Below are positions 35,345 through 58,520 of a DNA stretch of 64,000 nt, in pieces; position 1 is the stretch's first letter, and the number at the start of each line of letters is the position of its first letter. The DNA comes from a virus. The notes under the pieces were generated by a model that had not been told where the DNA came from, ran no database searches, and was given only the letters and a program-made list of their open reading frames with translations. The stretch spans positions 1 to 64,000 of IMG/VR virus record IMGVR_UViG_3300047476_001812, one strand, 5' to 3'. Both the position numbers and the translations under genes were made by a program.

Positions 35345-35467
35345 AACTACAAGTACAAAAATAGGTGCGTAGCACCCCATAAAAAAACTCTTCACTCCTA
35401 ATCCCAAAAGAATACTAACTCCGAAGGAACTAAAACTACGACTAGGGAGCGTAGCGACCCATAAAAA
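35345..35467 (-). promoter_or_regulatory. two tandem class B hairpin elements
   Basis: AACTAC-N16 with GGTGC-GTA-GCACC..CATAAAAAA, and GGAGC-GTA-GCGACCCATAAAAA. Confidence 0.75.
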
Positions 35468-35531
35468 CTTTCTTTAGTTTAAACCTGAGTTATGTTATTA
35501 TTTAAAGCAAGCAAAATAAACTAAGTTTACC

Positions 35532-36020
35532 ATGACAGTATTAGTTGACCATCAAATCAAATCTTTTTGTGAGAAAGGACTTGTTAAGCCCTATGATGAA
35601 TCCTTGGTTAATCCATCTTCCTTAGATATTAGGTTAGGAAATAATCTAATTATTGACAATGAGATTGCAAATATTTCTCATCACACAAAAGAAAATCCCT
35701 ACATCTTAGATGCTAATGAATTTGTGCTGGCAGAAACTCTAGAATATTTAACAGTTCCAAGTAATGTTGCTATAGAGTTAAAGTTAAAATCTTCTAGGGC
35801 TAGAGAAGGATTGTCTCACGCATTAGCAGGTTGGGTAGATAACGGATTTCATGGAGTATTGACTTTGGAATTAAAGAATTACTCTACAAAAAAACCAGTG
35901 TTTATCTACCCAGGATTGAGAATAGGTCAGCTAATTATTCACTCTACAGAAAAACCCACTACTCCCTATCAAGGAAAATATAGCGGGTTCACTACTGTTA
36001 TGAGTAGTTTGGATAAATAA
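35532..36020 (+). CDS. dcd: dCTP deaminase
   Basis: VNPSSLDIRLG, KSSRAREG, AGWVDNGFHGVLTLEL, PGLRIGQL. Confidence 0.93.
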   Translation: MTVLVDHQIKSFCEKGLVKPYDESLVNPSSLDIRLGNNLIIDNEIANISHHTKENPYILDANEFVLAETLEYLTVPSNVAIELKLKSSRAREGLSHALAGWVDNGFHGVLTLELKNYSTKKPVFIYPGLRIGQLIIHSTEKPTTPYQGKYSGFTTVMSSLDK

Positions 36021-36021
36021 A

Positions 36022-36372
36022 CTAAGCCTTGAGATAATCAAGATTAAAAGCCTCTCTACTTCTAATGGTGTCGGCTATTATATTTAACCACTCTTCAGTT
36101 ATCATTTTATTTGATAACTGAAATGTGACATAACCATAGTAAAGGCAAAGGTTATTTTTTATATAATCTCTTTCTATCCCACCTCCGCTACTATGCCCAC
36201 CTTTACCCCAAGTACCACCATTGATTTCTATGAGAACCTTAGATTTAATATGAGCATAGTCTGCCCTAAATCTGCGTTTAGGAACAGGCTTAAACTCATT
36301 TATTAAATCAATGCTAGGATAAAGAGTAAGCCATAGTTCTTCAAACTTTAATTCAAGAGTTGACTTTGGCAT
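36022..36372 (-). CDS. PD-(D/E)XK endonuclease (DUF559/Vsr-like)
   Basis: RFRADYA..KVLIEINGG..GGH....RDYIKNN. Confidence 0.75.
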   Translation of the reverse strand: MPKSTLELKFEELWLTLYPSIDLINEFKPVPKRRFRADYAHIKSKVLIEINGGTWGKGGHSSGGGIERDYIKNNLCLYYGYVTFQLSNKMITEEWLNIIADTIRSREAFNLDYLKA

Positions 36373-36432
36373 CTTCTTTTGCTAAATACCCTAAGTTTAT
36401 TTTTCTCAATCATAATTACTTCACAAATTACT

Positions 36433-36457
36433 TCACTATTAATGGGGCAATCGCCCC
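36433..36457 (-). promoter_or_regulatory. class A hairpin element, AATC-loop variant
   Basis: TCAC-N10; GGGGC-AATC-GCCCC. Confidence 0.7.
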
Positions 36458-36678
36458 TATACTTTTGATGGTTTAACTACCGAATCCAAGCAACGCATTT
36501 ACTGGAAAATCTATTTTCTTTTTTATATTGTTGTTATTAGCTTGTGTGTCTAATCTAATTGCACTAGGGGCAACTAAATATCTATTATCAAGTTGTTGTT
36601 TTTTCATAACTCACCTGTTTATTTTGCCGAATATATTATACCATAGAGCAAGCAAAATAAACAGTGGTTGGTTAAATA

Positions 36679-37668
36679 ATGGAACTAAATAAATCTACGG
36701 AACTGAGCAACAGCTTGGGAATAGCTATTGTTAATAGGAATACAGACTTAGCTAAATCAGTTATAACGGAACTGTCAGATTTGGAAGAAACTCATTTAGC
36801 TAAGATAACTTCTAGGGTTAGAGAGAATATATCTAATGAAGAATGGTCTTGGTTTCAATCACTTCTTAATGATGGGAACGAGAGTAAACCTGTAGCTCCG
36901 TTGGCTGATGAAGATAAGGAATTAAAACAAAAATTAGAAACAAGAATTATAGAGAACACAAAAAGGTTTTTTATAGACACAGGCAGGGATTTATATATTC
37001 TCAAGCAGAGAAAACTTTATCGTGAACAATACAATAGTTGGCAGTCTTATTGTCAACTAAGTTTAGGCATTAATCCTACTACCGCAAGTAGAGCTATTAA
37101 GGCATATCAAGATTGTGAAAGTATTCGCATTTACTTTAATGATGATACCTTGCTTCCTAAAACAGATTATGTTCTTAGATTATTAGGACAAATAAAAGAT
37201 GTAGAGTTAAGAGCTAATGTGTGGCGTAAAGCTTTAGAAGATTGTGGTAATTCACCCACTACCTCAGACATTAGAAGGGTATATGCTGAGATAATTAACC
37301 CTGAAGTTAAACCACCTAAGCCTAATAACTTAGAATTTAAAGTTGGTGATTTTGTATCTATAAAAGAATCCTGCATTAAGTGGGGTAAAGTAATTGAGAT
37401 TACATCAGGATTAAGATACAAAATTAAGTCAGGAGATATCACTTCAACATACCAGACTTATCAAGTAACTGAATTAGAAATACCTCTGTTTATTGCTGAG
37501 GCAGTAGAACAACTTTATCAATCTCATTCACCTAAATTAAATACAAATACTCTACTGAGTGACAATCACCCTCATACAAAATCTATTGCCACTACATTTT
37601 ATGGGTATAACGAATTTGCTGATTGGCAAATATCTTTGTTAGGGAGTCTAAGAAGCTTATGTCAATAG
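36679..37668 (+). CDS. cyanobacterial-type putative DNA-binding protein
   Basis: GRDLYILKQRKLYREQYNSWQSYC motif; KOW-like FKVGDFV segment. Confidence 0.6.
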   Translation: MELNKSTELSNSLGIAIVNRNTDLAKSVITELSDLEETHLAKITSRVRENISNEEWSWFQSLLNDGNESKPVAPLADEDKELKQKLETRIIENTKRFFIDTGRDLYILKQRKLYREQYNSWQSYCQLSLGINPTTASRAIKAYQDCESIRIYFNDDTLLPKTDYVLRLLGQIKDVELRANVWRKALEDCGNSPTTSDIRRVYAEIINPEVKPPKPNNLEFKVGDFVSIKESCIKWGKVIEITSGLRYKIKSGDITSTYQTYQVTELEIPLFIAEAVEQLYQSHSPKLNTNTLLSDNHPHTKSIATTFYGYNEFADWQISLLGSLRSLCQ

Positions 37669-38285: not shown

Positions 38286-38286
38286 T

Positions 38287-40248
38287 ATGACATTTAGGAT
38301 ACCAACACTTACATCTGCTGATGACGTTGCTGTATGGTTGAGTGGGGCAAAACAACAGCTTGATGATTACTTTGTTCAGCTACCCGCTTCTCATTATGAT
38401 GAGTTTTTCTCGCATCTTCCTGCCGCTGAACAATTAGTAGAAGCACAGGCAATGAGAAATGCAGAACAAAAAAACTATTTGCTAGAAATAGAAAGACAAG
38501 CTAAAAGATTTGGGTACAAACCAGAAAGAAGAAGAGTTGAAGAAGCAGTATCAGGTGGTGACATAGATACGGAATTTGTTCCTGAAAATGCTCCAGTTAA
38601 TTCTCAAGCACGTTCTGCTAAAGCTCCTCAAGGTGCAATCCGAATTGAAGGTGATATTTTTATGCCTTTAGAAGAAGAGCAAGCAATGAGAGAGCAGTTC
38701 AGAGGAAAAGGAAATGCTTTCTTTGATGAATTAAAAAAGAGAGGGTTAATTCAAGTATTAACTCCTGAAGGAAATAGGGTAGTTCCAAAGAAGTATGCAA
38801 TTTTTGATGAAACACTAGGAGAAAGAGGTAGGTATACTCTCAAGCCTGAAGTCCAATCGTATTTAGAATCCAGGAAAGTCAATACTCCTCAAGGTGTAGT
38901 AAGTCAACCCATTGCTGAAACCCCTCTTGTACAATCGTCTCCTCTTCCCAATAATGCTGAATCCGAAGCAACCTTAAATGATTTAGATAATCTCTTTTTA
39001 AACTCACAAACTCAACCTACCCCCCAAGAAGTTCCGGGAACTGTAACAACTATCTCTACAGATAATGGGGCAATTGCCCCAGACGTTGTGAGCGTATTAT
39101 CAACACAGCCGGGGTTTAGTGTAGTTCCAGAACCCGTATCTTATAGCCCACTACCCATACCAGAAGGAACTCCTGAGAGTGGTATTAATCGTAGTGTTTA
39201 CCCTGGAAGTAAAGCTGTATCTACTTCTTCCGGTATTCCTATGAGTGGAGGTGGTGGGAGTATTCCCCCTAAACCCCCCACAGGTGGTGGTAACTATGAC
39301 TTTGATGGGGAAGAGTTTAACCGTCAGAATAACTACACTCCTTACGGTGGCACACCCAACCATCCAGAAATACCAGGATTAAATGACCCTGTAGATGCTG
39401 ACGCAAATCTTAAATGGTTATGGGAAAGAAATCAACGAGAAACGCAAGCCCGTCAACAATATCTAAACGACAAGGCAAGACAAGTGGCTGATACTGGTAG
39501 TTGGTGGGGGAATGTATGGGATGGAGTTGGTAGAGGTTTTAATTATTCTGTTGAAGCTGGCAGAATGCCTGGTAGAACGGCATCTGTAATATGGAATCGC
39601 GCACCTAAAAAAGAATATGAACATCTTACTCCTGAAGGTAAAGCAGCTTTTTTTGGTGGCAGGGTTGCTGGAGAAATAGGTAATGGAACTAAACAAGTAT
39701 TATGGGAACTACATCCTGATGACTTTACCGCTACCCATTCTGTAAGAGCAGTTAGAGAGTCCGGTGGTAATCGTATAGCTCAAGTTTTGATACCTTATAT
39801 GACAACAACCGCATTGCAGCTAGGGTCACAAACCTATAACCCATTTAACCTGGGTGAAGGCGGTAGGGTTGCAGGATATCAAGCTATTAATCCTGATGAG
39901 GATGACCCACGTATTTCTACATCACCAGTGAGTGAGTTATTAATTGACAGAGGATTGTTAGGTAGAAGAGGTAAGCTACTTCCTTGGGAGCAATTTAGAC
40001 AAGAAAGAACTGATATCCCCTATGAACAGTATCAGAAGTATCAAGACTATTTACGTAATAAAGATGATAACTTCCTAAGAGATGCTACCGGGGGACTAAT
40101 TAAGGGGACTATGGATGGAATTAATGGACCAGAGTTGTCAGTGATGGGTTATTCTGTCACACCTACTGGGGCGTTAGCCGCCGGGGCTGCACTGTTAGCG
40201 GGTAGGGAATTAGTTAGAACAGGAAGAATAGCAGGGTTAAGGAAGTAA
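38287..40248 (+). CDS. probable internal virion protein
   Basis: 653 aa, P/G-rich linker, C-terminal Ala/Gly helix. Confidence 0.55.
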   Translation: MTFRIPTLTSADDVAVWLSGAKQQLDDYFVQLPASHYDEFFSHLPAAEQLVEAQAMRNAEQKNYLLEIERQAKRFGYKPERRRVEEAVSGGDIDTEFVPENAPVNSQARSAKAPQGAIRIEGDIFMPLEEEQAMREQFRGKGNAFFDELKKRGLIQVLTPEGNRVVPKKYAIFDETLGERGRYTLKPEVQSYLESRKVNTPQGVVSQPIAETPLVQSSPLPNNAESEATLNDLDNLFLNSQTQPTPQEVPGTVTTISTDNGAIAPDVVSVLSTQPGFSVVPEPVSYSPLPIPEGTPESGINRSVYPGSKAVSTSSGIPMSGGGGSIPPKPPTGGGNYDFDGEEFNRQNNYTPYGGTPNHPEIPGLNDPVDADANLKWLWERNQRETQARQQYLNDKARQVADTGSWWGNVWDGVGRGFNYSVEAGRMPGRTASVIWNRAPKKEYEHLTPEGKAAFFGGRVAGEIGNGTKQVLWELHPDDFTATHSVRAVRESGGNRIAQVLIPYMTTTALQLGSQTYNPFNLGEGGRVAGYQAINPDEDDPRISTSPVSELLIDRGLLGRRGKLLPWEQFRQERTDIPYEQYQKYQDYLRNKDDNFLRDATGGLIKGTMDGINGPELSVMGYSVTPTGALAAGAALLAGRELVRTGRIAGLRK

Positions 40249-40253
40249 TAATC

Positions 40254-40874
40254 ATGCAAATATTTGGTAGAGAAATAAACCCACAAGTTGCTTTTAAAAG
40301 GTATGGAAATGCCATTAGAGACGGAAGAATGTATGCTACCCGTCCTCACATCCCTCAAGAGTATTATGGTAATGCTGACAAAGCATCTTTTTGGTTAGGG
40401 CAACAACCTGGTATTGGTAATGCCTTAGAGTTTGCCGTTGATAATCCCTATGGTGCTGCTGCTGCATTGGCTGGCGGTACTGTAGTAAATAATTTAATTG
40501 GTAATCCAGTAGGAGGGGCTATTGATTTCCTCTCAATGGGATTAACTAATTTAAAACCTGATGAGTATGAACCGACAGACAAACAAAGAGTTATGTTTGT
40601 TGACTTACCAAGTCAGGAAATTGTTTACACAAATAGATATGGAGTTTCTGCCAAAATTCCATCTTCCAATGCTGCCTCTGTGGTGGCTGCTGATACTTTA
40701 GCTACACAACCTGGAATGCAGCAGCCCAACCAAGTTCAAATACCAGAACTTAATGAGGAAGAGCGGGATAAATTTATGAAGTACACTACTAACCGCACTG
40801 CTCAACAGATATTAACTTATCAGGCGTTGCAAGACTTTCTTAATCAACAACCTGGAATGGAGGGCTATCAATGA
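40254..40874 (+). CDS. probable virion protein
   Basis: Gly/Ala-rich segment, operon context. Confidence 0.55.
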   Translation: MQIFGREINPQVAFKRYGNAIRDGRMYATRPHIPQEYYGNADKASFWLGQQPGIGNALEFAVDNPYGAAAALAGGTVVNNLIGNPVGGAIDFLSMGLTNLKPDEYEPTDKQRVMFVDLPSQEIVYTNRYGVSAKIPSSNAASVVAADTLATQPGMQQPNQVQIPELNEEERDKFMKYTTNRTAQQILTYQALQDFLNQQPGMEGYQ

Positions 40875-41278
40875 ACTGGGGAAGTGTAGGAAGAGGATTT
40901 GCTTCTGTAGCTGATGACATTGCCCGTAGTCAAATGGGTAGAAGAATTGGTGAGGAGTATGTTGACAATGCTGCCAAAGCAGTTGCTAGAGAATTGAATG
41001 TTAATGATTTATTCACTGCTGATGACGCTGCTAAATATATGGCAGAAGCACAAGAAGATGCTGCTAAATGGTACGCAACTTTTGTTGCGCCTAATGGTCA
41101 AATACCTGTGGATGAAAATGAAATCCTTTATCGGATAGGCAGGGGTGCAGCACAAACAGGGCAATTTGCTAGGAACAATGTTGGTAATGCTTTAAATGTA
41201 GGAGTAAATGCCATGTTTTTAGCACCAATGGCTATGCAAATGTTACCACGCTCTGAAGAGGAACAATATTATGGGTAA
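40871..41278 (+). CDS. probable virion protein
   Basis: Ala-rich, coupled to neighbours. Confidence 0.55.
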   Translation: MNWGSVGRGFASVADDIARSQMGRRIGEEYVDNAAKAVARELNVNDLFTADDAAKYMAEAQEDAAKWYATFVAPNGQIPVDENEILYRIGRGAAQTGQFARNNVGNALNVGVNAMFLAPMAMQMLPRSEEEQYYG

Positions 41279-42443
41279 CTTTGGCAGGATAGCAGGTAGA
41301 GCATTCAATTATGGTATGCCTGTAGTTGGTGGTTTTGTAGACTACCAAAGCGGGAAAGAAGAGGGAGAAGATGACATTCGGGCTGGTGTTGGTGCTGTAG
41401 GTTCTACCCTTGGTGGTTTAGCCGCCACTGGTGCTGCCACTGCTGCTGGTGCTAAGGTTGGGGCTGCCCTTGGTACTGCCTTAGCACCAGGAGTAGGAAC
41501 ACTTGCTGGTGGTGCTATTGGTGGACTTGCAGGATTGGGTACTTCATTAGCAACACAAGGTTTAGGTAGCTTTGCCGGGGGATGGACTGCTGACAGATTA
41601 GATGAAGCTGTTAGGGGTAAAAATACAGGAGTTAAAAATAAGATGTCTCAATATGTACAAGACCAAAGAACAGGCGATATTGCAGAGGTTGATGATAACG
41701 GGAATATAGTTGGTTGGATTGTTAAAGGTGGTGTGGTTGTTGCTGGTGGTAACACCATGCTTAATATTGGCAATGAATTAAAAGACATTCCTTACGATTA
41801 CGCTAGGAATAAGGCTATATTTCAAGCTGACCCATTATTAAATGCAACACCTGAAGAGGCTGCTCGCTGGGCTGCAAGAGAAGTTCCAAGTGACATAGGA
41901 AGAGCCATAGGTAGAGGCTTTCGTACCACCGGAAATAATATTGGTAGGGTCTGGAATGCTATTCCTGGCAATAATGTAGTAAAAGCTGGTGCTGCATTAG
42001 CTTTTGTTGGCGACCAGCTAACTGGTGCTAACTTCTCAAAGGGTGTTGGTAGAGTTCTTGCTGGTGGTGCTGACGCTGTTGCTAACACTGTAGGTTTTAA
42101 CACAGATTTTGATGGACGAAACAGGATGAGTCAACAACAAATAAAGCAAAACAATGAGACTGCTAGGGTTGAAGATAATCTAAAAATCTACAACCCTTAT
42201 GATGAAGCAATCTATCAGAAAGGCTTTCGTAGTCGGCAGGAAATGGAAAACTACGAAAACAGAATATGGCAGCGCAACGAAGACAAAGCTGCTGAGGTCT
42301 TCAAAAAGCGTGATGACATTGCTCGTCGTAACTTTATGACTGAGTTTACAGCACAGCAAGCATCTGATTTGTTATCAAGGTATGCTGAGATGCCTCAATC
42401 TGTAGCTAATAGCATTGCACAAATCTATCAAGCAGCAAGGTAA
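41271..42443 (+). CDS. glycine-zipper protein, probable ejection/pilot protein
   Basis: GAALGTALAPGVGTLAGGAIGGLAG. Confidence 0.6.
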   Translation: MGNFGRIAGRAFNYGMPVVGGFVDYQSGKEEGEDDIRAGVGAVGSTLGGLAATGAATAAGAKVGAALGTALAPGVGTLAGGAIGGLAGLGTSLATQGLGSFAGGWTADRLDEAVRGKNTGVKNKMSQYVQDQRTGDIAEVDDNGNIVGWIVKGGVVVAGGNTMLNIGNELKDIPYDYARNKAIFQADPLLNATPEEAARWAAREVPSDIGRAIGRGFRTTGNNIGRVWNAIPGNNVVKAGAALAFVGDQLTGANFSKGVGRVLAGGADAVANTVGFNTDFDGRNRMSQQQIKQNNETARVEDNLKIYNPYDEAIYQKGFRSRQEMENYENRIWQRNEDKAAEVFKKRDDIARRNFMTEFTAQQASDLLSRYAEMPQSVANSIAQIYQAAR

Positions 42444-42594
42444 GAGATGGAAATCAAAGAGCAAGCTTTAAACAAATCTAAAATGTGGCAAGCCAAAAAA
42501 GCTAAATCTTCTTCTTATGATGCGCCAACTAGCACAGGTTTAGACACAAGTTATTCTACTCAGAAAAGTGTAGATAGAATAGGGGGAGTAAAAT

Positions 42595-43443
42595 ATGAAT
42601 AAACAACTGCAAGCTTTAGAGAAAGCTACGTTGTGGAAAGAAAGAAGAACTTCGGACGGTAATTACATAGAAAGGCTTGACAAAAACGGTAACGTTTATG
42701 AAAGAGTTTATTCTCCTATTCCAAAACAAACCACAATTAAAAAACCTACTCAAGCTAGACCTCAACCACCCAAAGTAAAACCACCGTCTAAGACAAGATA
42801 CACACCAACTCCAGAGCAAGAATACATAAGACAGCAAGGGGATCTAGCATTAGAGAAACAACTACGAAATCAAAAATATTGGTTTAACCTATTCAATGAA
42901 AATGCTAAGGAGGCTCAACAAAGTAATCAGAAGTATGGTCGTGAATTGCAAGACTCAATAAACAATACCAATTTACGGATGCAAGAAAAAAGAACATGGG
43001 GTGATGTAGAAGAAGCAAAGATTACTAGTGGGAGTAATCAGAATATTGCAAAAACACAAGCTGAAAGTGCTGGCAATGTTGCAAACATTAATGCCACAAG
43101 TGCTGAAACTGTTGCAAACATTAATGCCACAAGTGCTTTCAAAGTAACTGAGCTTGAAACTAAGTCTAAAAATTATGGTTATGATAAACAATATGAGTGG
43201 ACTAAGTATCAAGCTGACAGAGATGCTGAAGCAAGGAATAGACAAACCGATGCAAACTACTTTGTAGAAAGAGAGAAAAATGCAAACCAGAAAGAAAAGA
43301 ACAAACAGGATTTTTATCTTAACGCTGGTCTAGGTATATTAGACTCAATGAACAAACAAAGAGCTTCTAGTAGTCAAGCAGCAGCACAAATATACAGTTC
43401 TTTTTTGTCAAGTAATCCGTATAACTTTAAGTATTGGAATTAA
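42595..43443 (+). CDS. probable ejection protein
   Basis: Q/N/K-rich coiled coil with duplicated VANINATSA. Confidence 0.55.
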   Translation: MNKQLQALEKATLWKERRTSDGNYIERLDKNGNVYERVYSPIPKQTTIKKPTQARPQPPKVKPPSKTRYTPTPEQEYIRQQGDLALEKQLRNQKYWFNLFNENAKEAQQSNQKYGRELQDSINNTNLRMQEKRTWGDVEEAKITSGSNQNIAKTQAESAGNVANINATSAETVANINATSAFKVTELETKSKNYGYDKQYEWTKYQADRDAEARNRQTDANYFVEREKNANQKEKNKQDFYLNAGLGILDSMNKQRASSSQAAAQIYSSFLSSNPYNFKYWN

Positions 43444-43457
43444 AGAAAGGGTAGAGT

Positions 43458-43976: not shown

Positions 43977-44011
43977 TGTAAAAGGGAGGTAATAACCTCC
44001 CTCAATTAAAT

Positions 44012-50206: not shown

Positions 50207-50226
50207 GATAAGCTCCAATCAAATAA

Positions 50227-50267
50227 AACTACAAACAAAAAAAAGGGAGCGTAGCTCCCCATAAAAA
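50227..50267 (-). promoter_or_regulatory. class B hairpin element
   Basis: AACTAC-N16; GGGAGC-GTA-GCTCCC; CATAAAAA. Confidence 0.78.
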
Positions 50268-50284
50268 CCTTCTTTCGATTAAGC

Positions 50285-50569
50285 CTAGATAAAGAAATTC
50301 CCTTCACGCTTTAATTTTTCTATCAAGTTTTCATCTTTTAAAGGATGAACTTCAATTTCAAAGCCCAAAGCCGAGGATATTTTCTCATATTCTAATTTTC
50401 CATTTACGGAAAATTTTTTTGTCTTAAACCTACCAAAACACGGATTACCGGAATGGAAATCCGTAAAGTAATAAGTCATTTCTTCTGGTAACGACTCTTC
50501 ATTCAGTAAATTCATTACATTCCGGTAAACTTCGGATGTTTGAAGCAAGTCTTTATTTAAGTTGGTCAT
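50285..50569 (-). CDS. hypothetical protein
   Basis: 94 aa; class A element at 50599-50622. Confidence 0.65.
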   Translation of the reverse strand: MTNLNKDLLQTSEVYRNVMNLLNEESLPEEMTYYFTDFHSGNPCFGRFKTKKFSVNGKLEYEKISSALGFEIEVHPLKDENLIEKLKREGNFFI

Positions 50570-50644
50570 TTTCTTTTTCTCCGATTAGTTAATTTCCACC
50601 AAAAGTAATTAGGCGTTAGCCTTGTACTTGCTAACGCCAACCAA

Positions 50645-51358
50645 TTAAACCTTGCTTTCTGCAATAAGCCAATTAATGGCTTTTACAATGCTGTTTCCGT
50701 GACAGTCTAAGGGTTCACAGAAACAGATTAATCTGACATTGACACCTGACTTAACAAGCAAAGCAATACGTTTTAACTCATTCCAAACTGAGTTTTGGGC
50801 GTCAGGTTCACGCCATGCAATTTGCATCTGCTTCCAAAGCCATCTGTGATACAAGTCACAAACAGTTTTTCTGGTATGTTCACCACCCATAGGGTATGGA
50901 TTCCCTAAAACACTAGGTCTACCAATGTAAATATCGGTATAACCAAGCTCAGGAGAAAGTGTTTTCTTATTGACAACTTTGATGTTGCCAACCTTGAAAG
51001 TTTGAATCACTTTTGTTTTGGGAACACGCTTGATATTTTCAGCAGTCCCTTTGCTAAATCCGTCCCAAATAGCTAAACCAAAGTCAGCTTGAGAACACAT
51101 AAACTTATCTCTGTCAGTATAACTGCCATCAACTTTAACTGTACAAAAGCCAGCATTATTTCTTGGCTTTTGATAAGCATGAAAAACAGTTACCGCTTTA
51201 TAATCTTTGGACTTCAGATATTGCTGAACTAAGAGGTCAATTCCGGGAGCATCTCCAACAAGAATCTCAAATCTTTGCTCCATGATTTTATCTAAAGACT
51301 TAATAACGTCTTTAGGTAAAACAGGTATTGAACGGCTGCCAGAAATTACTACTTTCAT
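50645..51358 (-). CDS. SLOG-like (YspA/DprA-related) domain fused to DUF4326-like domain
   Basis: KVVISGSR..LVGDAPGID..AIWDGFSKGT; YIGRPSVLGNPY..LICFCEPLDCHG. Confidence 0.75.
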   Translation of the reverse strand: MKVVISGSRSIPVLPKDVIKSLDKIMEQRFEILVGDAPGIDLLVQQYLKSKDYKAVTVFHAYQKPRNNAGFCTVKVDGSYTDRDKFMCSQADFGLAIWDGFSKGTAENIKRVPKTKVIQTFKVGNIKVVNKKTLSPELGYTDIYIGRPSVLGNPYPMGGEHTRKTVCDLYHRWLWKQMQIAWREPDAQNSVWNELKRIALLVKSGVNVRLICFCEPLDCHGNSIVKAINWLIAESKV

Positions 51359-51371
51359 AGCCAAGTAAATA

Positions 51372-51432
51372 AACTACAACTAAATAATTTAGGAGCGTAG
51401 CGACCATAAAAAAAGGTGGCTTTTACACCACC
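51372..51432 (-). promoter_or_regulatory. class B element fused to terminator of upstream gene
   Basis: AACTAC-N17-GCGTAGC; A7 tract then GGTGG/CCACC hairpin. Confidence 0.75.
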
Positions 51433-51439
51433 TAATAAT

Positions 51440-51634
51440 TTATAAATCGTCTATCGTTTCTGCCATTACAGGCTCGTTTAAGCCTGCGGGTTCGTCAAAA
51501 CGAGGTTCATTTTCCCACTCCTCGTCTATGGACTTTACTGATAGTCTATACTCCAAGAATATAGACAGTAAATCTTGAGAATCCTTGAGGAATTTCTCTT
51601 CAAGAAATTCGTTAAAATTAAAGTTAAGGTTCAT
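51440..51634 (-). CDS. small acidic protein
   Basis: E/D-rich 64 aa. Confidence 0.6.
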   Translation of the reverse strand: MNLNFNFNEFLEEKFLKDSQDLLSIFLEYRLSVKSIDEEWENEPRFDEPAGLNEPVMAETIDDL

Positions 51635-51650
51635 AATAGACCCCAAATTA

Positions 51651-51691
51651 AACTACAACTAACTAATAGGAGCGTAGCGACCATAAAAAAA
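51651..51691 (-). promoter_or_regulatory. class B hairpin element
   Basis: AACTAC-N15-GCGTAGCGACCATAAAAAAA. Confidence 0.78.
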
Positions 51692-51720
51692 CCGTCAGCA
51701 TTTAAGCCAACGGATAAACT

Positions 51721-52152
51721 CTAAATTTGAACTATTACTGCATTTGGGCAGTGAGTTCGTATCAAGTTGCCGACTACATTCCAACCCCCACCAGCTAAAC
51801 CACATCCCATTTTATAGGGAAGATATGGGGTTAACCCTAACTCAATGGATTTAGTGTGAAGTTTATTGAGGCAAACCGTCAAAGCATCATAATCAGTTTG
51901 ACGTTTACCAATCCCATAGCCATTTTGACCTGCCATGTTGCAAATATATAAACCAGGATTGACCTTTACAAACTGCACCATTCCAAGGAGGAATTTACCC
52001 TCCTTGCAATACTTGGAATAGGAGGTAAAGCAAACTGGGTATTTTTCTCGCAGGGATTTAGCTAACCCCGCACCCATCACGCCCTTGCAATTAACTTGAT
52101 GGCAAATAATGCCAGATTCAATTGTTAACAAATTACCTTTGATTAATTCCAT
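51721..52152 (-). CDS. macrodomain (ADP-ribose-binding/hydrolase) protein
   Basis: IKGNLL..ICHQVNCKGVMGAGLA..PYKMGCGLAGGGW. Confidence 0.9.
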   Translation of the reverse strand: MELIKGNLLTIESGIICHQVNCKGVMGAGLAKSLREKYPVCFTSYSKYCKEGKFLLGMVQFVKVNPGLYICNMAGQNGYGIGKRQTDYDALTVCLNKLHTKSIELGLTPYLPYKMGCGLAGGGWNVVGNLIRTHCPNAVIVQI

Positions 52153-52169
52153 GCCAATAAACCACCATA

Positions 52170-52209
52170 AACTACACCTATTTTGCAGGAGCGTAGCGAC
52201 TCATAAAAA
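52170..52209 (-). promoter_or_regulatory. class B hairpin element
   Basis: AACTAC-N15-GCGTAGCGACTCATAAAAA. Confidence 0.78.
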
Positions 52210-52212
52210 TCT

Positions 52213-52434
52213 TTATTGTTTTAAATTTTTGTTCAAAGCTTCTGCCAATTTAATGGCTTTGGCTTTAGTTAAACCAACTTTAATGTTAGTTAATTTACCA
52301 TTAAGTTTCCAGATAACAGACCAGTATGTGTCATTGTTTATCAGCATTTGGACAGCATGAAAACTGTTTTCAGATAACAATTTTCTAGCGTTGTTAAATT
52401 CAACTACAGCAGCCTGAGTTATTTCTTTAGACAT
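52213..52434 (-). CDS. hypothetical protein
   Basis: 73 aa; class A element at 52447-52469. Confidence 0.6.
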   Translation of the reverse strand: MSKEITQAAVVEFNNARKLLSENSFHAVQMLINNDTYWSVIWKLNGKLTNIKVGLTKAKAIKLAEALNKNLKQ

Positions 52435-52484
52435 ATACTTAACACTTCACTACTTATAAGGCGTTAGCCCTGTACTTTGTATGC

Positions 52485-52727
52485 TTACCAATCAGGATAA
52501 TCTGTGTTGTCAAGATTAATCCGTTCTTCTTCTAATTTTTGCTTGAGATAATTAGCCAAGTCTAACACTTCTTCATAAGCGTCTTGTAAAGCACTTCTGT
52601 TGTTGAAAGGTTGTAGTGGAGTACCGTATTTTTGAATGCCTATCTGTTTCCGGTACAAGATGTCTGCGGCAACCAGATTGGCTATGTGGGGAAGGTTGTT
52701 AGGGACTGGATTAGGCAATGGTTGCAT
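52485..52727 (-). CDS. conserved phage protein, all-alpha NTP-pyrophosphatase-like
   Basis: RKQIGIQKYGTPL...LQDAYEEVLDLANYL. Confidence 0.6.
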   Translation of the reverse strand: MQPLPNPVPNNLPHIANLVAADILYRKQIGIQKYGTPLQPFNNRSALQDAYEEVLDLANYLKQKLEEERINLDNTDYPDW

Positions 52728-53751
52728 AAAATTTTGTAGTGGTTTTAGATTATCCCTTTAATTTTCCTTGTTAAAGCCTCTTGGATTTGGATTAATAACC
52801 AAATACCCCAGAAAGATATTAAAGGCATTTAAAACACAAAAATAGAGGCAAATCAGAGGACGTGCGGCGGAAAGCTTATCCCCAGGAAAAGGCAAAGGCG
52901 TAGACCAAAGAAGGAAATTCTGTGGTGGGAAAGCAAGGGTAAACCCAGTACAGAAGGTTTTCTAGCATTGTGTACCCTCTAGCCCTCTAACCTCTGGTTT
53001 TCTAACAGCCTGTTTTTCTAATAGCTTACATACCCTAACAGCCTGTTTTAACAAAGCTAATTTAAACTTTCTTGCTGGTTTAAAATTCTTTTGGTTTTTA
53101 GGTGAAAGCTTTCCGTGCGCGCACCAGGCGATAGCCTGTCCATATTCGGAGGTGTGTTGTAAATAGGACACCTGTTCAAATAAAGTAGTCTTCTTATATC
53201 GTGTGTAATTTAATTAATATAATATATTAACTAATATATATATAATATAAGAGCAGCGTTTATTTGCTTGATGGTAGCAATAGAGACGTTGGGTAAAAAG
53301 GTATTTTGATAGGGTTGAAATAGGCATTTAAAAGTTATTTTGTATTAATTGAAAGCATTGTTGTTAAAGGGTTTTGGTTTATTTTAATTGTTAACAAATA
53401 GTAGGAAATAAGTATATCTTTGTACGGATTACTGAGAAGGTATGTAGAATGACTGAGTTCACTATGATATTGTACGATTGAGCATATACTATAAGTGGTT
53501 AATGTGATTATAGTATTGAGTGATAACCGTACTACTGATGACTAAAGCTTGATTATTGCGCCATTTGCTATAAGTGACAGAGTATCCGCTGAGTCTGTAC
53601 GTTTGAGCATATACGGACTAGCCTTTCAAAGAGCTTATTGTCTGTAGTTTGTGGTATAATTGAATAGTCAATAAAAAAAAATCCCCTCGCAAACCTGGTA
53701 CTGGTAATACCGAAGATTTCAGGGGAAGTAACCTATAGGGCAGGTCACAAT

Positions 53752-54126
53752 ATGATTATTCTAAATGGTTTTAACCACCGCGTCTATCCTGAGCGGAAAT
53801 GTATTCCTGGACTTATTTATTTAGTCAAATGCCATGAATACTACAAAATTGGACAAACAGGTGGACATATCAACGCAAGAATTTCGCAAATACAAACTGG
53901 AAACCCATACGCTGTAGAGCTTATTGACCAGTTCTCTTCATACAAGCCAAGAAAAGATGAGGACTTTCTGCACCGTTTATTTGATAACGTCAGGGTAAGG
54001 GGTGAGTGGTTTGAAATTCCTTCTATTTATATTGAAAGCAGAGAAATTTGGTTTAAACCATTTGAAAATATGTCGGTTAAGCAGATTCAAGATGAGATAG
54101 AATCCAAGATTCTAGCTGGCAAGTAA
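53752..54126 (+). CDS. GIY-YIG (T5orf172/MUG113-like) nuclease
   Basis: IYLV..YYKIGQT...RISQIQTGNP..LHRLF..RVRGEWF; TGGTATAAT -10 at ~53652. Confidence 0.85.
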   Translation: MIILNGFNHRVYPERKCIPGLIYLVKCHEYYKIGQTGGHINARISQIQTGNPYAVELIDQFSSYKPRKDEDFLHRLFDNVRVRGEWFEIPSIYIESREIWFKPFENMSVKQIQDEIESKILAGK

Positions 54127-54406
54127 TCCTGTCTACGTAAAACACAAACCAATTACCCACTAGCTAATCACCTTGGTTTAGAGTTAGTGGATATTACCTT
54201 ATCTAAAGCTCTCTTATAGATTACACTGTCGTATTACTCCGTACAAATTGAAGTATCCAGCAATTAGTCTATTGTAATTCCCCTTAATTTAATGTCATCT
54301 GAAAGACTAAGTGTATTAATATTGCAAACGTAGTTGTAGTCTTGGTTTCAGGGGTTTTGCAAAGCTAACAAAAGAAAAGGAGGGACAATGCCCTCCGAGT
54401 GAAAAT

Positions 54407-54568
54407 TTATTTTGAGATAACTATTGAAACAGTCAAACTTGCCTGCGATATCGCAAGCAGATTTACCCCACTTAGCTTGTTGAACTCCCTTGTCACCAAG
54501 GAACTCAAGAATCTTGCTTTGCCGTTGCTGTAAACAACAGCTTTAGTCCTGACTTTTCTGAGTTTCAT
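54407..54568 (-). CDS. small basic protein (start revised)
   Basis: MKLRKVRTKAVV; class B element at 54583-54622. Confidence 0.55.
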   Translation of the reverse strand: MKLRKVRTKAVVYSNGKARFLSSLVTREFNKLSGVNLLAISQASLTVSIVISK

Positions 54569-54582
54569 GATAAAATCCCATT

Positions 54583-54640
54583 GATTACGCCACAAACAGG
54601 AAGCGTAGCGACCATAAAAAAAGGAGGGACTAAGCCCTCC
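54583..54640 (-). promoter_or_regulatory. class B element fused to terminator
   Basis: GATTAC-N14-GCGTAGCGACCATAAAAAAA then GGAGGG/CCCTCC hairpin. Confidence 0.7.
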
Positions 54641-54648
54641 CAAAATAG

Positions 54649-54840
54649 TTAATATTCAATAAAGTCGTCCTCAATGGGCTCATCGAATGAGGACTTTACC
54701 TCCTCAAGGGCTTCTCTCAACATTTCCATATTCATATCTTCGTACCCCTCCACATCATAAAATTCAGCAAGAAGGAGTAACCCCTCCTTACCAGAGGAGT
54801 GGATTCTGTCCAGAGCGGACAGTCTAAATGTGATTCTCAT
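54649..54840 (-). CDS. small acidic protein (start revised)
   Basis: MRITFRLSALD...; class B element upstream. Confidence 0.6.
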   Translation of the reverse strand: MRITFRLSALDRIHSSGKEGLLLLAEFYDVEGYEDMNMEMLREALEEVKSSFDEPIEDDFIEY

Positions 54841-54855
54841 AACCAAACCTGAATT

Positions 54856-54894
54856 AACTACAACTATATATAGGGAGCGTAGCGACCATAAAAA
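54856..54894 (-). promoter_or_regulatory. class B hairpin element
   Basis: AACTAC-N15-GCGTAGCGACCATAAAAA. Confidence 0.78.
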
Positions 54895-54924
54895 CAACTC
54901 TGCCAGAGCAGCAAGCTGCAAGAC

Positions 54925-54954
54925 TTGTCACTTAACCACAAAGTCTGCTATATT
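54925..54954 (+). promoter_or_regulatory. sigma70-type promoter
   Basis: TTGTCA-N18-TATATT with TGn extension. Confidence 0.6.
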
Positions 54955-54959
54955 GTATT

Positions 54960-55440
54960 TACTTGGTTGAACTAACTACGAGTGAGTAGACGCAAACCAC
55001 CACGATGTAAGGCTCTTGAGGCTTTGAAGTGTAGAGCTAGTGAGGAACTGAGCTTGGTTAGCAGACGAAATGCCGGATAGAGTTCAGACTTGGTAAAACA
55101 GTCCTCTAAGCAATCGTGAGGACACCGGGCTAAAGTTCTGCCTTACCTGGGAAACCGGGACTTGGTTGAGAGACCCTCAATTAAAGTAAAGAATTAGTTG
55201 GCAACTCTAAAGTTGTGATTGCAAGTTGGTTGTAAAACCTGATTACCTGTAATGTAAATCCCACCTGACTGTAAAACCAAATAATCCCCATTGTTAAAGG
55301 ATTCTATCTTTTAACCAAGTCTTCTCTAATCCTGTTTGGTTTACTGCGTAGAGCCAAAGCTAAAGAGGTTAAGAAAACTTACTTGGTTTATAAAAGATGG
55401 AAGTTTTGTCGTGTTTACCTATAACCCGAAGGCAATAAAA
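54960..55440 (+). ncRNA. candidate ~480-nt structured non-coding RNA
   Basis: no ORF of 60 aa or more, upstream promoter, several stems including a GAAA tetraloop. Confidence 0.45.
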
Positions 55441-55472
55441 GAAAAAGAGAGCCGAAGCCCTCCTAATCAAAA

Positions 55473-55718
55473 TTAGTAACTGTAAGTACCTACGCACTCA
55501 CCGTCCAGGTAGACATCTACTACATAGCTTTTGTCCCCTATGCGGGTTTTTCTAGTTTTGATATCAATGTTGGCGTTGTCAGGTATTTCCCCAACAATAC
55601 CTTTAATCTTGTCTATCTGCTCCCAATTCTGGGAATACCCCTGTAGCTGTTTCGCCCACATGGGACGATTGTCCTGACGACCTTCGCTTTCAAACACACC
55701 GTTATCTAAATCAAACAT
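55473..55718 (-). CDS. hypothetical protein
   Basis: GAGG RBS; class B at 55739-55788 and class A at 55801-55824. Confidence 0.65.
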   Translation of the reverse strand: MFDLDNGVFESEGRQDNRPMWAKQLQGYSQNWEQIDKIKGIVGEIPDNANIDIKTRKTRIGDKSYVVDVYLDGECVGTYSY

Positions 55719-55738
55719 AACCAAATCCTCAATACGTT

Positions 55739-55824
55739 AACTACAACAAAACTAAAGGGGCGTAGCCCCCATAAAAAACCAACATTAGACAAAGCTAACA
55801 TCAAAACCTATCAGGCGTTAGCCT
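55739..55824 (-). promoter_or_regulatory. adjacent class B and class A elements
   Basis: AACTAC-N15, GGGGC-GTA-GCCCC; TCAA-N10-GCGTTAGC. Confidence 0.75.
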
Positions 55825-55867
55825 TGTCCATGCGAAGGACAAACGGGGGAATTTAACCCCCAGGAAG

Positions 55868-56290
55868 CTATAACTGCAAGGCTGCAATCAGCTCAGACTT
55901 TCGCATACTACCGTATTTGGGTATAGCCCTTTCCTTGGCTATAATTTTGAGTTCTTTGACAGTTAAAGAGTTGTAATCTAAGTCCTTGCACTTAGATTGC
56001 TCAAATTGAGCATCTAAGGTCTCCCAAAGCTTGTCACCAGGGTTTGGAAGCTTAGGAGTCATTTGTTCTTTAGCCAATTCAATTACATTTATTTCAGGTT
56101 CAGACTCTTGGGAGTCTAAAGTAACTTGAACCCAAGAAATGTCGGCAACTTTTAAAGTCTGTTGCTGAGTTCCAATTAATTGGTGTCCAGCGTTATTCCA
56201 GATTGTTTCCATATCCAAAATAAAGTCTGCGGTCATGCAAGCAAACAATGCAACTATTAAAACCAAGCAGAAAAAGACTGAGTAATCCAT
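55868..56290 (-). CDS. membrane-anchored protein with C-terminal Rho-N-like domain
   Basis: N-terminal TM; LTVKELKIIAKERAIPKYGSMRKSELIAAL. Confidence 0.75.
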   Translation of the reverse strand: MDYSVFFCLVLIVALFACMTADFILDMETIWNNAGHQLIGTQQQTLKVADISWVQVTLDSQESEPEINVIELAKEQMTPKLPNPGDKLWETLDAQFEQSKCKDLDYNSLTVKELKIIAKERAIPKYGSMRKSELIAALQL

Positions 56291-56329
56291 ATCTTTTATA
56301 AACCGTTATTTTGCTAACTACAATTACTA

Positions 56330-57491
56330 TAGGAATCCTAGTTGATTTTTGAAAAAGATTCAGAGAAAATACGTATGAGAATATAAGTGTAAAAGTAGAC
56401 AATGATAAACCAGCATCTATCAAATGTATCATACCCACCAAAAGTGGCAACTGCAATTGCCGAACTACAAGACTTCATAGCAGGTTGTCGTGATGCTCGT
56501 GAAGCCAGAAAAGCCTTGGCGGTGAAATTGGTTTACCAAGATTACTTATACGAAGAGATCCAGACAATTTTAGATGTGTCTTTAGGTTCGATAACTGGTT
56601 GGAAGCAAGCTTACGAGCAAAACGGACTTAATGGCTTAAAGTTAAACCATAAAGGGCGAAAAAGCTATTTGAGTAGCGAACAACGAGAACAAGTGTTAAG
56701 TTGGTTGCAAACCAAGAACTGCTGGGAACTGGGGGAATTGGAGTACAAATTAGCCTTTGAATATGATGTGGTTTATGAGTCAAAGCAAAGTTACTATGAT
56801 TTATTCGATGCTGCTGACATAGCTTGGAAGAAGACCACAAAGTTAAATCCCAAAGCCAACCCAGAGGCTGTGGCAGAAAAAAAAAAGAGATTGAAACACT
56901 ACTGGCAAGCAAGCGTTCCGAAATAGAAACCGGAAAATTGAGGGTATTATTAATTGATGAGTGTCATTTAATGTGGGGAGACTTAAGTGGCTATGTCTGG
57001 GGGAGAACTGATACAGAAATCACAGTTCCAGTGGTGAATGAGCGCAATAAACAAACATATTATGGGGCAGTTGATTATCTTGAAGGAAAATTGCTGCTTA
57101 GAGCTTACGATAAGGGGAACTCAGAAAATACAATTGATTATCTGCGATATTTACTAAATGAGTCTGGCGAGCAACAATTGTTACTTTTTTGGGATGGTGC
57201 GACCTATCATCGTTCCAAAGAAATTCAAGAGTTTTTGGATGAAGTTAATCAAGGTTTGACAATTGACCAATGGAAAATACGCTGCGTCCGTTTTGCACCC
57301 AATTGTCCAGAACAAAATCCTATTGAGGATATTTGGTTACAAGCCAAAACATGGGTGCGGCGTTTTTGTGCCTTAATTCCAACATTCTCACATTTGAAAT
57401 GGATGTTTGAATGGTTTATTCGACACACTACCTTTGATTTTGCCACTCTTCAGATGTACGGATTTTTTTCAAAAATCAAATAGGAGTCCTA
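56330..57491 (+). mobile_element. IS630-family insertion sequence
   Basis: ~27-bp terminal IRs TAGGA(A/C)TCCTA(G/T)TTGATTTTTGAAAAA; TA flanks at 56328-56329 and 57492-57493. Confidence 0.93.
56402..57483 (+). CDS. IS630 transposase, two ORFs joined by a -1 frameshift
   Basis: HTH orfA 56402-56926; orfB with IDE, WDGATYH, PEQNPIEDIW; A10 slippery run at 56877-56886. Confidence 0.9.
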
Positions 57492-57538
57492 TAGACAGGG
57501 CGTAGCCCACATAAAAAAAGGGGCAATTGCCCCTGTAC

Positions 57539-58102
57539 TTATGACTTAGAAAGTCTCATAGCCTCCTCGTTAGGAGAATACTTGAAACCGCAAGATTCAA
57601 GTAACTCACGTAGGTTCAGATTAATGCGAGTGTCGTAATAGAAGGCGATATTGCCTTCTATAGAGTTGATTGCCATTTCAATGAAGGTCTTTAGCTTGAG
57701 GTCTAAGTTATCTTGAGCTAACCACCATTTATGGTCATTGAGGTCGTCCCCACTAGCAGGGACTTCCTGTCCATTCACTTTAATAGAGAGCAGTTGCTCT
57801 CCTGTTAGTGGGCAAACCTCAAGATGGACTTTGATGGATTCACCCAGATTAACCTTGCCTTGGTTGGCAAGGGTTCTTTCGCAAATTGCATCCAAGACCT
57901 TTGGAGGAATTTCCTCCACAAAGAATTCACATCTATTTAGCCGATTGATACTCCAGCGCTGCTGGAATTTGCAGCGGTGGTGTTGTAAATAGGCACACAA
58001 TTTGTCCCCTAAATAGCTGGGGACGCATACCATGTAAGCAGGTATGCGAGATGAACATTTCCACTCAGGGATATACAAAACCTCAAATCTTGGGTCAGAC
58101 AT
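57539..58102 (-). CDS. hypothetical early-type protein
   Basis: 187 aa; class B element upstream; terminator-like GGGGC-AATT-GCCCC plus U tract downstream. Confidence 0.7.
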   Translation of the reverse strand: MSDPRFEVLYIPEWKCSSRIPAYMVCVPSYLGDKLCAYLQHHRCKFQQRWSINRLNRCEFFVEEIPPKVLDAICERTLANQGKVNLGESIKVHLEVCPLTGEQLLSIKVNGQEVPASGDDLNDHKWWLAQDNLDLKLKTFIEMAINSIEGNIAFYYDTRINLNLRELLESCGFKYSPNEEAMRLSKS

Positions 58103-58116
58103 AACAAAACCTGGTT

Positions 58117-58158
58117 AACTACGCCAATTGGTTGGGAGCGTAGCGAACATAAAAAAAA
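58117..58158 (-). promoter_or_regulatory. class B hairpin element
   Basis: AACTAC-N15-GCGTAGCGAACATAAAAAAAA. Confidence 0.78.
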
Positions 58159-58186
58159 GGGAATGGATAAACCACTCCCTAATAAG

Positions 58187-58474
58187 TTAGAACCCAACCA
58201 ATGGGTCATACGACCCAATCATAAGTTCATTCCATAAGTCGTACTCAGCCTGAGTTAGTTTGAACGTCCTGCGAAGTTCAAGATATTGAAGAATATCTTG
58301 AAGAGTTACCCATCTACTCTCAAGAATCTCTGAACATTGTTGAATGGAAAAAGGAACGTGATATTCAGGATGTTCTTGGTCTGGAAGAATATCCAGGTCA
58401 ACGAGTGACTGCATAACGGCGGCTAAGTCACTTTCTGATAGTGTAGAAAGAAATTCCGTAAACATATTAAGCAC
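58187..58474 (-). CDS. hypothetical acidic protein
   Basis: 95 aa. Confidence 0.65.
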   Translation of the reverse strand: MLNMFTEFLSTLSESDLAAVMQSLVDLDILPDQEHPEYHVPFSIQQCSEILESRWVTLQDILQYLELRRTFKLTQAEYDLWNELMIGSYDPLVGF

Positions 58475-58480
58475 CTTGTC

Positions 58481-58520
58481 AACTACACCAATTGGTTGGG
58501 AGCGTAGCGACCCATAAAAA
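58481..58520 (-). promoter_or_regulatory. class B hairpin element (rightmost)
   Basis: AACTAC-N15-GCGTAGCGACCCATAAAAA. Confidence 0.78.

Follow-up and report, generated by a model that had tools for sequence, protein, structure and literature searches.

The early promoters of bacteriophage N4 are DNA hairpins that are activated by single-stranded DNA-binding protein (SSB). The N4 mini-vRNAP, a form of virion RNA polymerase (RNAP), docks on the template-strand sequence GCGGAGC (PMC13037366; PMC4496689), in a stem of 5 to 7 bp whose nonconserved bases are free if pairing is kept (PMC4496689; PMC13037366). Heptamers of the form GCGNAGC are known as "mini-hairpin DNA," in which two G-C pairs are joined by a sheared G.A pair; their melting temperatures are 76°C (N = A), 73°C (N = G), 71°C (N = C), and 70°C (N = T), and SSB binds them poorly (PMC13037366). 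Here, we describe a repeated element, class B, in an uncultured freshwater cyanophage (IMG/VR record IMGVR_UViG_3300047476_001812), a single virus contig of 79,924 bp from freshwater metagenomes, of which the first 64 kb are the window analyzed. We tentatively propose, at slightly less than even confidence, that class B is a phage-specific promoter module with a template-strand hairpin, most likely read by the phage's own two-barrel RNAP.

Other described systems share parts of this arrangement. In Thermus phage P23-45, the virion RNAP gp96, which is fused to the tape measure protein, uses AT-rich promoters, and the nonvirion two-barrel RNAP gp64 uses GC-rich ones (PMC10770324). In Bacillus phage 0305phi8-36, 21-bp promoter candidates have been proposed for orf99, which resembles RNA-dependent RNA polymerases, although this reader is unproven (PMC2147016). 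YonO of SPbeta has a single mapped promoter, PyonO, whose determinants were left for "further investigation" (PMC5467207), and our literature searches found no later definition of it. Among cellular promoters, those of cyanobacterial SigF carry a -32 element, TAGGC, separated by 15 nt from a -12 element, GGTAA (PMC2532724).

A covarying hairpin with an invariant core

The heptamer GCGTAGC occurs 15 times in the window, compared to 1.52 ± 1.37 times in shuffled sequences, none of which (0/100) reached 15. Fourteen matches lie on the + strand between 35367 and 58502, each within one class B element of ~45 nt, while the fifteenth (8987, minus strand) lacks class B flanks. An nhmmer search of the whole 79,924-bp genome with a class B profile returned exactly 14 matches, all on the minus strand (E = 9e-12 to 5e-5), and these are the 14 copies listed in a preliminary description made from the sequence alone (Table 1). 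Read in the direction of the genes (minus), an element consists of a T5-8-AT-G tract, a 5' arm, the loop TAC, a 3' arm, a T/A/G-rich spacer, and the box (T)GTAGTT(T/A)A, after which come a Shine-Dalgarno sequence, within a short leader, and an ATG. The literal pattern AACTAC-N-CATAAAAA has one match only and is too strict because boxes and spacing vary slightly; the 14-to-17-nt spacing first described holds when recast as 18 to 21 nt from the loop center to the G of the GTA box. Across five genomes, this distance is 18 nt in 16 copies, 19 nt in 20, 20 nt in 11, and 21 nt in 6, and the box lies 15 to 31 nt from the start codon, with a mode of 20 to 22 nt.

To gather relatives, we scanned IMG/VR for exact matches to the pattern and then searched whole records; the present genome is referred to as G000, close relatives as G002 to G005, and a distant relative as G001. 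An ungapped alignment of the 31 distinct class B variants from five genomes has an invariant core, GC-TAC-GC, near-invariant flanking GG/CC, and adjacent stem positions that covary. Stem pair 6-14, for example, is CG in 7 variants, GC in 7, UA in 4, AU in 1, and UG in 1. Covariation scored 0.291, compared with 0.177 ± 0.024 for shuffled alignments; 0 of 500 shuffles scored as high, and slid registers gave 0.20 or less. Orthologous copies pass from a TC/TC mismatch to perfect pairs via three coordinated changes (G000 35452 versus G002 45107). The covariation noted in the preliminary description is thus borne out, and pairing of the class B hairpin is under selection.

An imperfect palindrome of this kind could instead be a duplex operator, bound by a dimeric phage regulator over a minimal GTA-box promoter and forming no hairpin. 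The near-invariance of the core and of the flanking GG/CC would suit such an operator, as would the mismatched state of the commonest variant and the near identity of the copies in G001, in which covariation is consequently lacking. However, a dimer that reads sequence would not select an inner stem that varies freely yet in complementary fashion, as at pair 6-14, and two lineages keep the + strand loop as G..A with a middle T or A, which is the GNA rule. We therefore regard an operator as improbable.

The commonest form of the stem has a tandem mismatch (8/14 copies here and 11 to 12 of the 31 distinct variants), which reads as C.T/T.C on the sense strand and as G.A/A.G on the template (+) strand; this is the recurring G-A mismatch of the preliminary description. 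On the template, GCGTAGC is invariant in all 14 copies and all 31 variants, while G001 has GCGAAGC within stems of only 3 to 4 bp. From published values, the melting temperatures of these 7-mer cores are 70°C and 76°C, respectively. The loop ends G and A are kept and the middle base depends on lineage, which fits the GNA rule for a template-strand DNA hairpin. Covariation and the exact mini-hairpin sequences together support the assignment of class B as a hairpin of this type.

The element might instead act in RNA (as a processing site, stabilizer, or polymerase-specific terminator) or serve as an ssi signal for DNA priming, as do the GCGTTAGC/GCGAAAGC mini-hairpins at the origins of G4, St-1, and alpha3. 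It is true that four copies (48440, 50260, 55770, and 49699) score as a hairpin with a T-rich tail, that primase-dependent origins are marked by mini-hairpins of the same sequence type (PMC13037366), and that every class B copy lies on one DNA strand. As RNA, however, the commonest variant carries tandem C.U/U.C and has no fold, and most copies lack a U-tract past the hairpin, with canonical terminators already directly upstream. In a scan for intrinsic terminators only 4/14 copies passed; the T-run precedes the hairpin, and separate terminators stand upstream. A search of 34500 to 59500 against Rfam 15 at the gathering threshold gave 0 matches, so that no Rfam family speaks for an RNA-level role. 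Priming sites, for their part, would not be expected to keep a set distance to start codons or to be tied strictly to gene starts. We consider either role very improbable.

Like class B, the N4 early promoters P1 to P3, which serve the virion RNAP, have a template GCG-N-AGC heptamer, a 3-nt loop, and outer stem bases that vary and covary (PMC4496689; PMC13037366), although the tandem mismatch of many class B variants and the 3- to 4-bp stems of G001 agree less well with the N4 stem. Both kinds of element lie upstream of early genes (early-type genes here) and appear insensitive to the logic of duplex sequence, and SSB and supercoiling are plausible helpers of both. The differences are also clear: N4 has 3 promoters, versus 14 copies here; in N4, an A4 ruler separates the hairpin from the start site, and the loop center is at -11 relative to +1, whereas the class B GTA box is 18 to 21 nt away, the A/T run lies upstream of the hairpin, and nothing is conserved at +11 from the loop center. 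The enzyme-contacted base at the N4 loop center is a purine (G or A), whereas it is T in class B (A in G001), and the N4 enzyme is a T7-like virion protein of 3,500 amino acids (aa), whereas none was found here and the only RNAP found is two-barrel. The earlier label of an N4-like triloop accordingly stands for the GCGNAGC template mini-hairpin but not for the geometry, the T at the loop center, the side of the T/A run, or the type of polymerase. We infer that class B works in the way N4 early promoters do, but it does not belong to that family.

Cassettes, the RNAP operon, and related genomes

All class B copies share one orientation, are codirectional with the genes, and are limited to a block of small genes and the head of the RNAP operon. 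This placement, which the preliminary description had recognized, is kept in five relatives. Terminator-like sites are enriched 3.5-fold between 47 and 59.2 kb (30, versus 8.6 ± 2.5 expected), and at least five terminators end inside the T-run of a class B copy; therefore, the hairpin sits after one transcript ends and before the next gene. Since terminators are enriched and abut class B, and an ATG follows shortly after the box, the small-gene block is an array of terminator-promoter-gene cassettes. The genes behind class B are small and mostly without a known family, with Macro-like, DUF4326/SLOG-like, and Rho_N/SAP-domain genes as exceptions, a content typical of early or accessory genes. 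On grounds of position, orientation, and conservation, the suggestion that class B is promoter-like is well supported.

In the leftward operon at 35.4 kb, two tandem class B copies are followed by two small open reading frames (ORFs), two elements of a second motif (class A, below), a putative leader terminator, and the 808-aa RNAP gene. The orthologue of copy 2 in G002, G003, and G005 has a perfect stem, GGACGC/GCGTCC. Between these promoters and the RNAP start codon, a strong hairpin (CCCCTTAGTAG...CTACTAGGGGG) followed by TTTTCT (34680 to 34723, minus strand) is kept in G004 and could terminate or attenuate transcription in the leader of the RNAP gene. Copy 12 is split by an IS630-type insertion sequence (IS), as previously noted, with its orthologue intact in three relatives; the IS limits were set by foreign RNA contigs that match that stretch alone. 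Copy 3 lacks a T-run because a class A element (48463 to 48474) lies directly upstream.

Table 1. Coordinates of class B copies and associated features in the window
Feature	Position	Strand	Remarks
SSB gene (phrog_44)	23667-24380	-	Possible helper at hairpin promoters
1951-aa protein	26129-31984	-	Directly downstream of RNAP gene; N/P/G/Q-rich; conserved hydrophobic C-terminus
808-aa two-barrel RNAP (QDE-1/YonO-type)	32227-34653	-	Candidate reader; preceded by two class B and two class A elements
Degenerate class B relic	34735-34760	-	TTATTTTTATG-TTCAC-TTC-GTGCA; under profile threshold; intact third copy there in G002, G004, and G005, upstream of RNAP gene
Class B copy 1	35343-35387	-	Core 35367-35373 on +; second of tandem pair heading RNAP operon; perfect stem GGTGC/GCACC; E = 3.9e-8
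Class B copy 2	35428-35470	-	First of tandem pair; divergent region adjoining + strand dCTP-deaminase-like gene
Sigma factor, group 3 (SigF-like), 220 aa	37623-38285	+	Rival candidate reader with host core RNAP; Sigma70_r2 E = 1.7e-16
Class B copy 3	48404-48440	-	No T-run; ~100-nt leader with terminator-like hairpin 48384-48367, then 388-aa gene 47140-48306
Class B copy 4	49661-49708	-	GTAGTT box doubled; ~100-nt leader, then 296-aa gene 48670-49560
Class B copy 5	50226-50270	-	Perfect stem GGGAGC/GCTCCC; GTA box 26 nt before ATG of gene 49745-50218
Class B copy 6	51370-51416	-	Adjoins terminator 51433-51414; before DUF4326/SLOG-like gene 50645-51364
Class B copy 7	51649-51692	-	Adjoins terminator 51713-51692; before 68-aa gene 51440-51646
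Class B copy 8	52168-52210	-	Before Macro-domain-like gene 51721-52152
Class B copy 9	54581-54623	-	Box GTAATC; adjoins terminator 54641-54622
Class B copy 10	54854-54897	-	Top profile match, E = 9e-12
Class B copy 11	55737-55779	-	Perfect stem GGGGC/GCCCC; class A element (55813-55824) ~30 nt upstream
Class B copy 12, downstream half	56316-56329	-	GTAGTT box, 56316-56321; before Rho_N/SAP-domain gene 55868-56290
IS630-type IS	56328-57493	+	Splits copy 12; HTH_33/HTH_23 and DDE_3
Class B copy 12, upstream half	57491-57520	-	T-run and hairpin; adjoins terminator 57534-57519; IS separates hairpin from GTA box
Class B copy 13	58115-58158	-	Adjoins terminator 58180-58158; before 187-aa gene 57539-58102
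Class B copy 14	58479-58523	-	First of the array; before 95-aa gene 58187-58474

The four close relatives (RNAP identity, 81 to 88%) have 3 to 17 class B copies each (3 in G004, a 43-kb fragment); the orientation is uniform, and the copies are again found within the small-gene block and where the RNAP operon begins. In G001, a complete genome of 75.7 kb whose RNAP is 47% identical, the GCGTAGC element was not found. Instead, there are seven analogous copies, AATATTTTTCTTTAAAC-GCTTCGC-N13-(G)TGTAAT-N~20-ATG, of which three immediately precede the RNAP gene and the other four form a second cluster; all seven are nearly identical in sequence and give no covariation signal. Since G001 keeps the layout with a different core, the architecture (a T-rich box, a triloop with a GC clamp, a GTA box at +18, and the placement) is older than the sequence.

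Two further observations concern the relatives. G001 is rich in HIP1 palindromes (23 occurrences of GCGATCGCA and 19 of the reverse complement), which points to a HIP1-rich cyanobacterial host; the present genome has no HIP1 enrichment. A more distant genome, G006 (RNAP identity, 29%; 86% complete), contains 14 exact TTCCGACGGAA triloop hairpins, the orientation of which switches along the genome. It was dropped as support because the hairpins often appear to lie inside ORFs, at no fixed distance to starts. No sigma factor was found in this genome, 86% complete as it is.

Candidate readers of class B

We asked which enzyme might read class B. The 808-aa protein has a DTDGD motif, and PF05183 is recognized in a relative. 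Its structural model (pLDDT, 85.6) matched QDE-1 in Foldseek (2j7n; E = 1.6e-14; TM, 0.56), as well as plant RDR2, Thermus phage nonvirion RNAPs (8f5m and 8f72), and crAss gp66. By its modeled fold, the protein is a two-barrel RNAP of the QDE-1/YonO type. Its structural relatives act on DNA templates: titles in the PDB include QDE-1 with DNA templates, and phage nonvirion RNAPs are also among the structural matches. The hhalign comparison to YonO was marginal (probability, 2.7%; E = 0.017), with agreement in motif order. The preliminary description had left room for a second RNAP outside the window; a six-frame search of the genome for DxDGD returned only the 808-aa RNAP, and a PF00940 search for a T7-like RNAP had no match, a weak test in that control genomes were silent too. 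The 1951-aa protein encoded next to the RNAP is 55 to 91% identical in G002 to G005, with only weak partial tblastn matches in G001; searches of Pfam, PHROGs, the ESM Atlas, and the PDB (by single sequence and by profile) gave no match to it.

From this layout we infer promoter activity, together with a start site, extrusion, a reading enzyme, and timing, as follows. The T5-8-AT tract, which often also supplies the U-tract for the intrinsic terminator of the preceding gene, is followed by a GC-clamped hairpin whose template (+) form is the very stable GCGTAGC mini-hairpin, a GNA triloop with a sheared G.A pair. Negative supercoiling would extrude the hairpin, with help from the AT-rich flank, and a polymerase unable to melt duplex DNA could then dock on it on the template strand, in the manner of the N4 virion RNAP. 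Transcription would most likely start at the (T)GTAGTT box and yield an ~20-nt leader with a Shine-Dalgarno sequence. The most likely reader would be the phage's own QDE-1/YonO-type RNAP, possibly with a cofactor or as a premade copy. Class B elements would divide the small-gene block into cassettes and also provide the first promoters of the RNAP operon.

The relay of P23-45 is the closest precedent for two motif classes of which one drives a nonvirion RNAP gene. P23-45 likewise has two promoter classes, one driving pre-early genes that include the gene for the two-barrel nonvirion RNAP, and gp64 homologues (P74-26 gp62 and the P23-45-like P32 gp64; 8f5m and 8f72) are among the structural matches of the 808-aa protein. 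The systems differ in that no hairpins are reported for P23-45 (PMC10770324), which has two RNAP genes versus one DxDGD protein here, and in that transcription start sites were mapped there and are proposed here. 0305phi8-36 resembles the present genome in a 14-copy intergenic motif before small monocistronic genes and in a PF05183-type polymerase, but its genome, unlike the present one, has no sigma factor, and neither a hairpin nor a mini-hairpin is described. YonO belongs to the same polymerase superfamily as the 808-aa RNAP, but its late genes form one long operon rather than many short cassettes.

Alternatively, class B may be read by host core RNAP with the phage's SigF-like sigma factor (or a host group 3 sigma), the GTA box serving as a -12/-10 element and the T-run and hairpin as an upstream element, activating or architectural, in place of the -35 contacts that a factor with no recognizable region 4 could not make. 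The best NCBIfam match of the phage sigma factor, a candidate absent from the preliminary description, is SigF PRK07408 (1.4e-37, below the cutoff and over residues 7 to 149 only), and region 4 was not recognizable. The factor is conserved in G001 to G005, co-occurring with the RNAP, and is thus kept wherever class B or its analogue occurs, including G001. The box (T/G)GTA(A/G)T shares GTA(A) with the -12 element GGTAA of Synechocystis SigF (PMC2532724), the sister motif class A fits (A)GGC-N15-GGTGA, which is the TAGGC/GGTAA spacing, and the canonical intrinsic terminators that flank the cassettes would be explained. Such a model also offers a simple cascade, from host sigma to phage sigma to the RNAP gene, that accounts for first expression of the RNAP.

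Yet class B has no TAGGC-like -32 element at a fixed distance: in a direct test for a SigF-type promoter, only GTA(A/G) of GGTAA was present, and the pentamer 15 nt upstream fell in the loop or stem and does not resemble TAGGC. The conserved part upstream lies too far away, at a spacing that varies over 3 nt. SigF and sigma-B promoters have a conserved G before GTA where class B mostly has T, and a start 12 nt past the T of GTA would leave leaders of ~7 to 10 nt with the Shine-Dalgarno sequence at the extreme 5' end. The sigma gene shares a + strand operon with genes of the virion type, an indication of a late role, and a sigma promoter gives no reason for covarying stems or an invariant GCGNAGC. 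Searches for sigma-70-type promoters (-35 TTGACA/-10 TATAAT, spaced by 16 to 18 nt, with A-11 and T-7) found no consensus site at class B elements, with 30 promoter-like sites versus 33.4 expected, and the last position of the TAGTTN hexamer, a conserved T in a -10 element, varies among T, A, and G. Neither motif is present in Synechococcus phage S-EIVl, nor are the RNAP and the sigma factor, so that this phage is uninformative as to sigma or RNAP. Altogether, we consider reading by a sigma holoenzyme unlikely, though not negligibly so. The phage RNAP is given the larger share because an SSB-resistant template mini-hairpin suits a polymerase without a melting factor, whereas a sigma holoenzyme needs none. 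A site for NtcA (GTA-N8-TAC) was rejected separately, since both order and spacing are wrong.

Several observations weigh against a template-strand hairpin read by the phage RNAP. A nearest-neighbor DNA model gives the commonest variant -0.6 kcal/mol on the template and 0 on the sense strand, although this model lacks mini-hairpin and G.A data, underestimates mini-hairpins, and cannot rank the strands; the stability of that variant rests on the published mini-hairpin and G.A data. G.T wobbles on the sense strand at outer stem positions (13/31 at pair 3-17) would be A.C mismatches on the template, so that pair statistics are ambiguous as to strand, with G.A favoring the template and G.T wobbles favoring the sense strand. 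The phage encodes its own sigma factor, and the canonical bacterial-type terminators of the cassettes would also suit host RNAP. If the phage RNAP were the sole reader of class B, its gene would first have to be transcribed from a different promoter or by a packaged enzyme. RNAP relatives at 37 to 43% identity (L154, L156, and L157) have no class-B-like element within the ≤4 kb of upstream sequence fetched. Finally, four metatranscriptome RNA runs compared with 40000 to 59990 yielded contigs of relatives only, which cover virion genes, the IS, and an ORF-free island; the class B array is nearly without cover.

Class A and the genome setting

Class A comprises 36 copies of GCGTTAGC on the + strand of the genome, lying in the window between 7540 and 58984, and is conserved in G001 (20 copies). 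On the sense strand it is a hairpin, GC-TAAC-GC, followed by N10 and GTGA in 21/36 copies; an alternative reading is (A)GGC-N15-GGTGA. The core of class A is the GCGNNAGC mini-hairpin, as at the St-1 and alpha3 primase origins. A TAC ~15 nt from the hairpin was said in the preliminary description to recur in many class A copies, an overstatement: a GTA (TAC on the + strand) 15 nt past the core is present in only 5/36 (~14%), and the shared start-site register drawn from it holds for that share of the copies only. It is conceivable, if rather doubtful, that the template mini-hairpins GCGNAGC (class B) and GCGNNAGC (class A) are both promoters of QDE-1/YonO-type two-barrel RNAPs, which would have converged with the unrelated T7-like enzyme of N4 on docking at an extruded, SSB-resistant mini-hairpin in place of sigma-dependent duplex melting, and that the two loop classes time two gene sets.

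Class A loop variants (AATT, GATT, and GACT) occur at 13035 and 63293 in the window and at 68597 and 74587 beyond it. A third motif, GCAAGCAAAA(T/C)AAA(C/T), lies on the + strand at ~35505 to 35520, ~36655 to 36670, and ~59003 to 59018, with a weaker copy at ~14470. It stands 10 to 16 nt before the ATG of the rightward dCTP deaminase-like gene, the sigma-gene operon, and the portal operon, is preceded by TATTAT or TGTAAT, and may be a late or host-type promoter or a leader element.

Leftward genes occupy 3.2 to 14.2, 18.3 to 35.4, and 47 to 58.9 kb, and the virion and packaging blocks run rightward. The portal protein is 37.6% identical to that of S-EIVl. Within the cassette array, the ORF-free island (54987 to 55423) is covered by RNA contigs at a depth of 17 to 26 in two metatranscriptome runs, far above adjacent genes, consistent with an abundant noncoding RNA. 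Beyond the window, an 851-aa ORF (76986 to 79541) contains several 9-mers spaced 132 nt apart (genome, 77.2 to 78.1 kb), a spacing that would indicate a tandem protein repeat of 44 residues.

To our knowledge, promoter recognition by single-chain two-barrel RNAPs (YonO, phage nonvirion RNAPs, and relatives of RNA interference polymerases) is poorly understood, and we know of no sigma-like partner for these enzymes. Class B could make such recognition testable in a compact system that consists of one 808-aa polymerase and two hairpin motif classes with ultrastable mini-hairpin cores; natural stem variants already form a compensatory-mutation series, and the diverged relative offers a different loop base. 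If the RNAP reads class B, it would be the first enzyme not of the T7 type shown to use DNA-hairpin promoters and would provide a small orthogonal transcription module, while if the phage sigma factor does, class B would be an unusual structure-assisted sigma promoter. With either reader, the cassette array shows how a cyanophage lineage insulates and swaps its early accessory genes.

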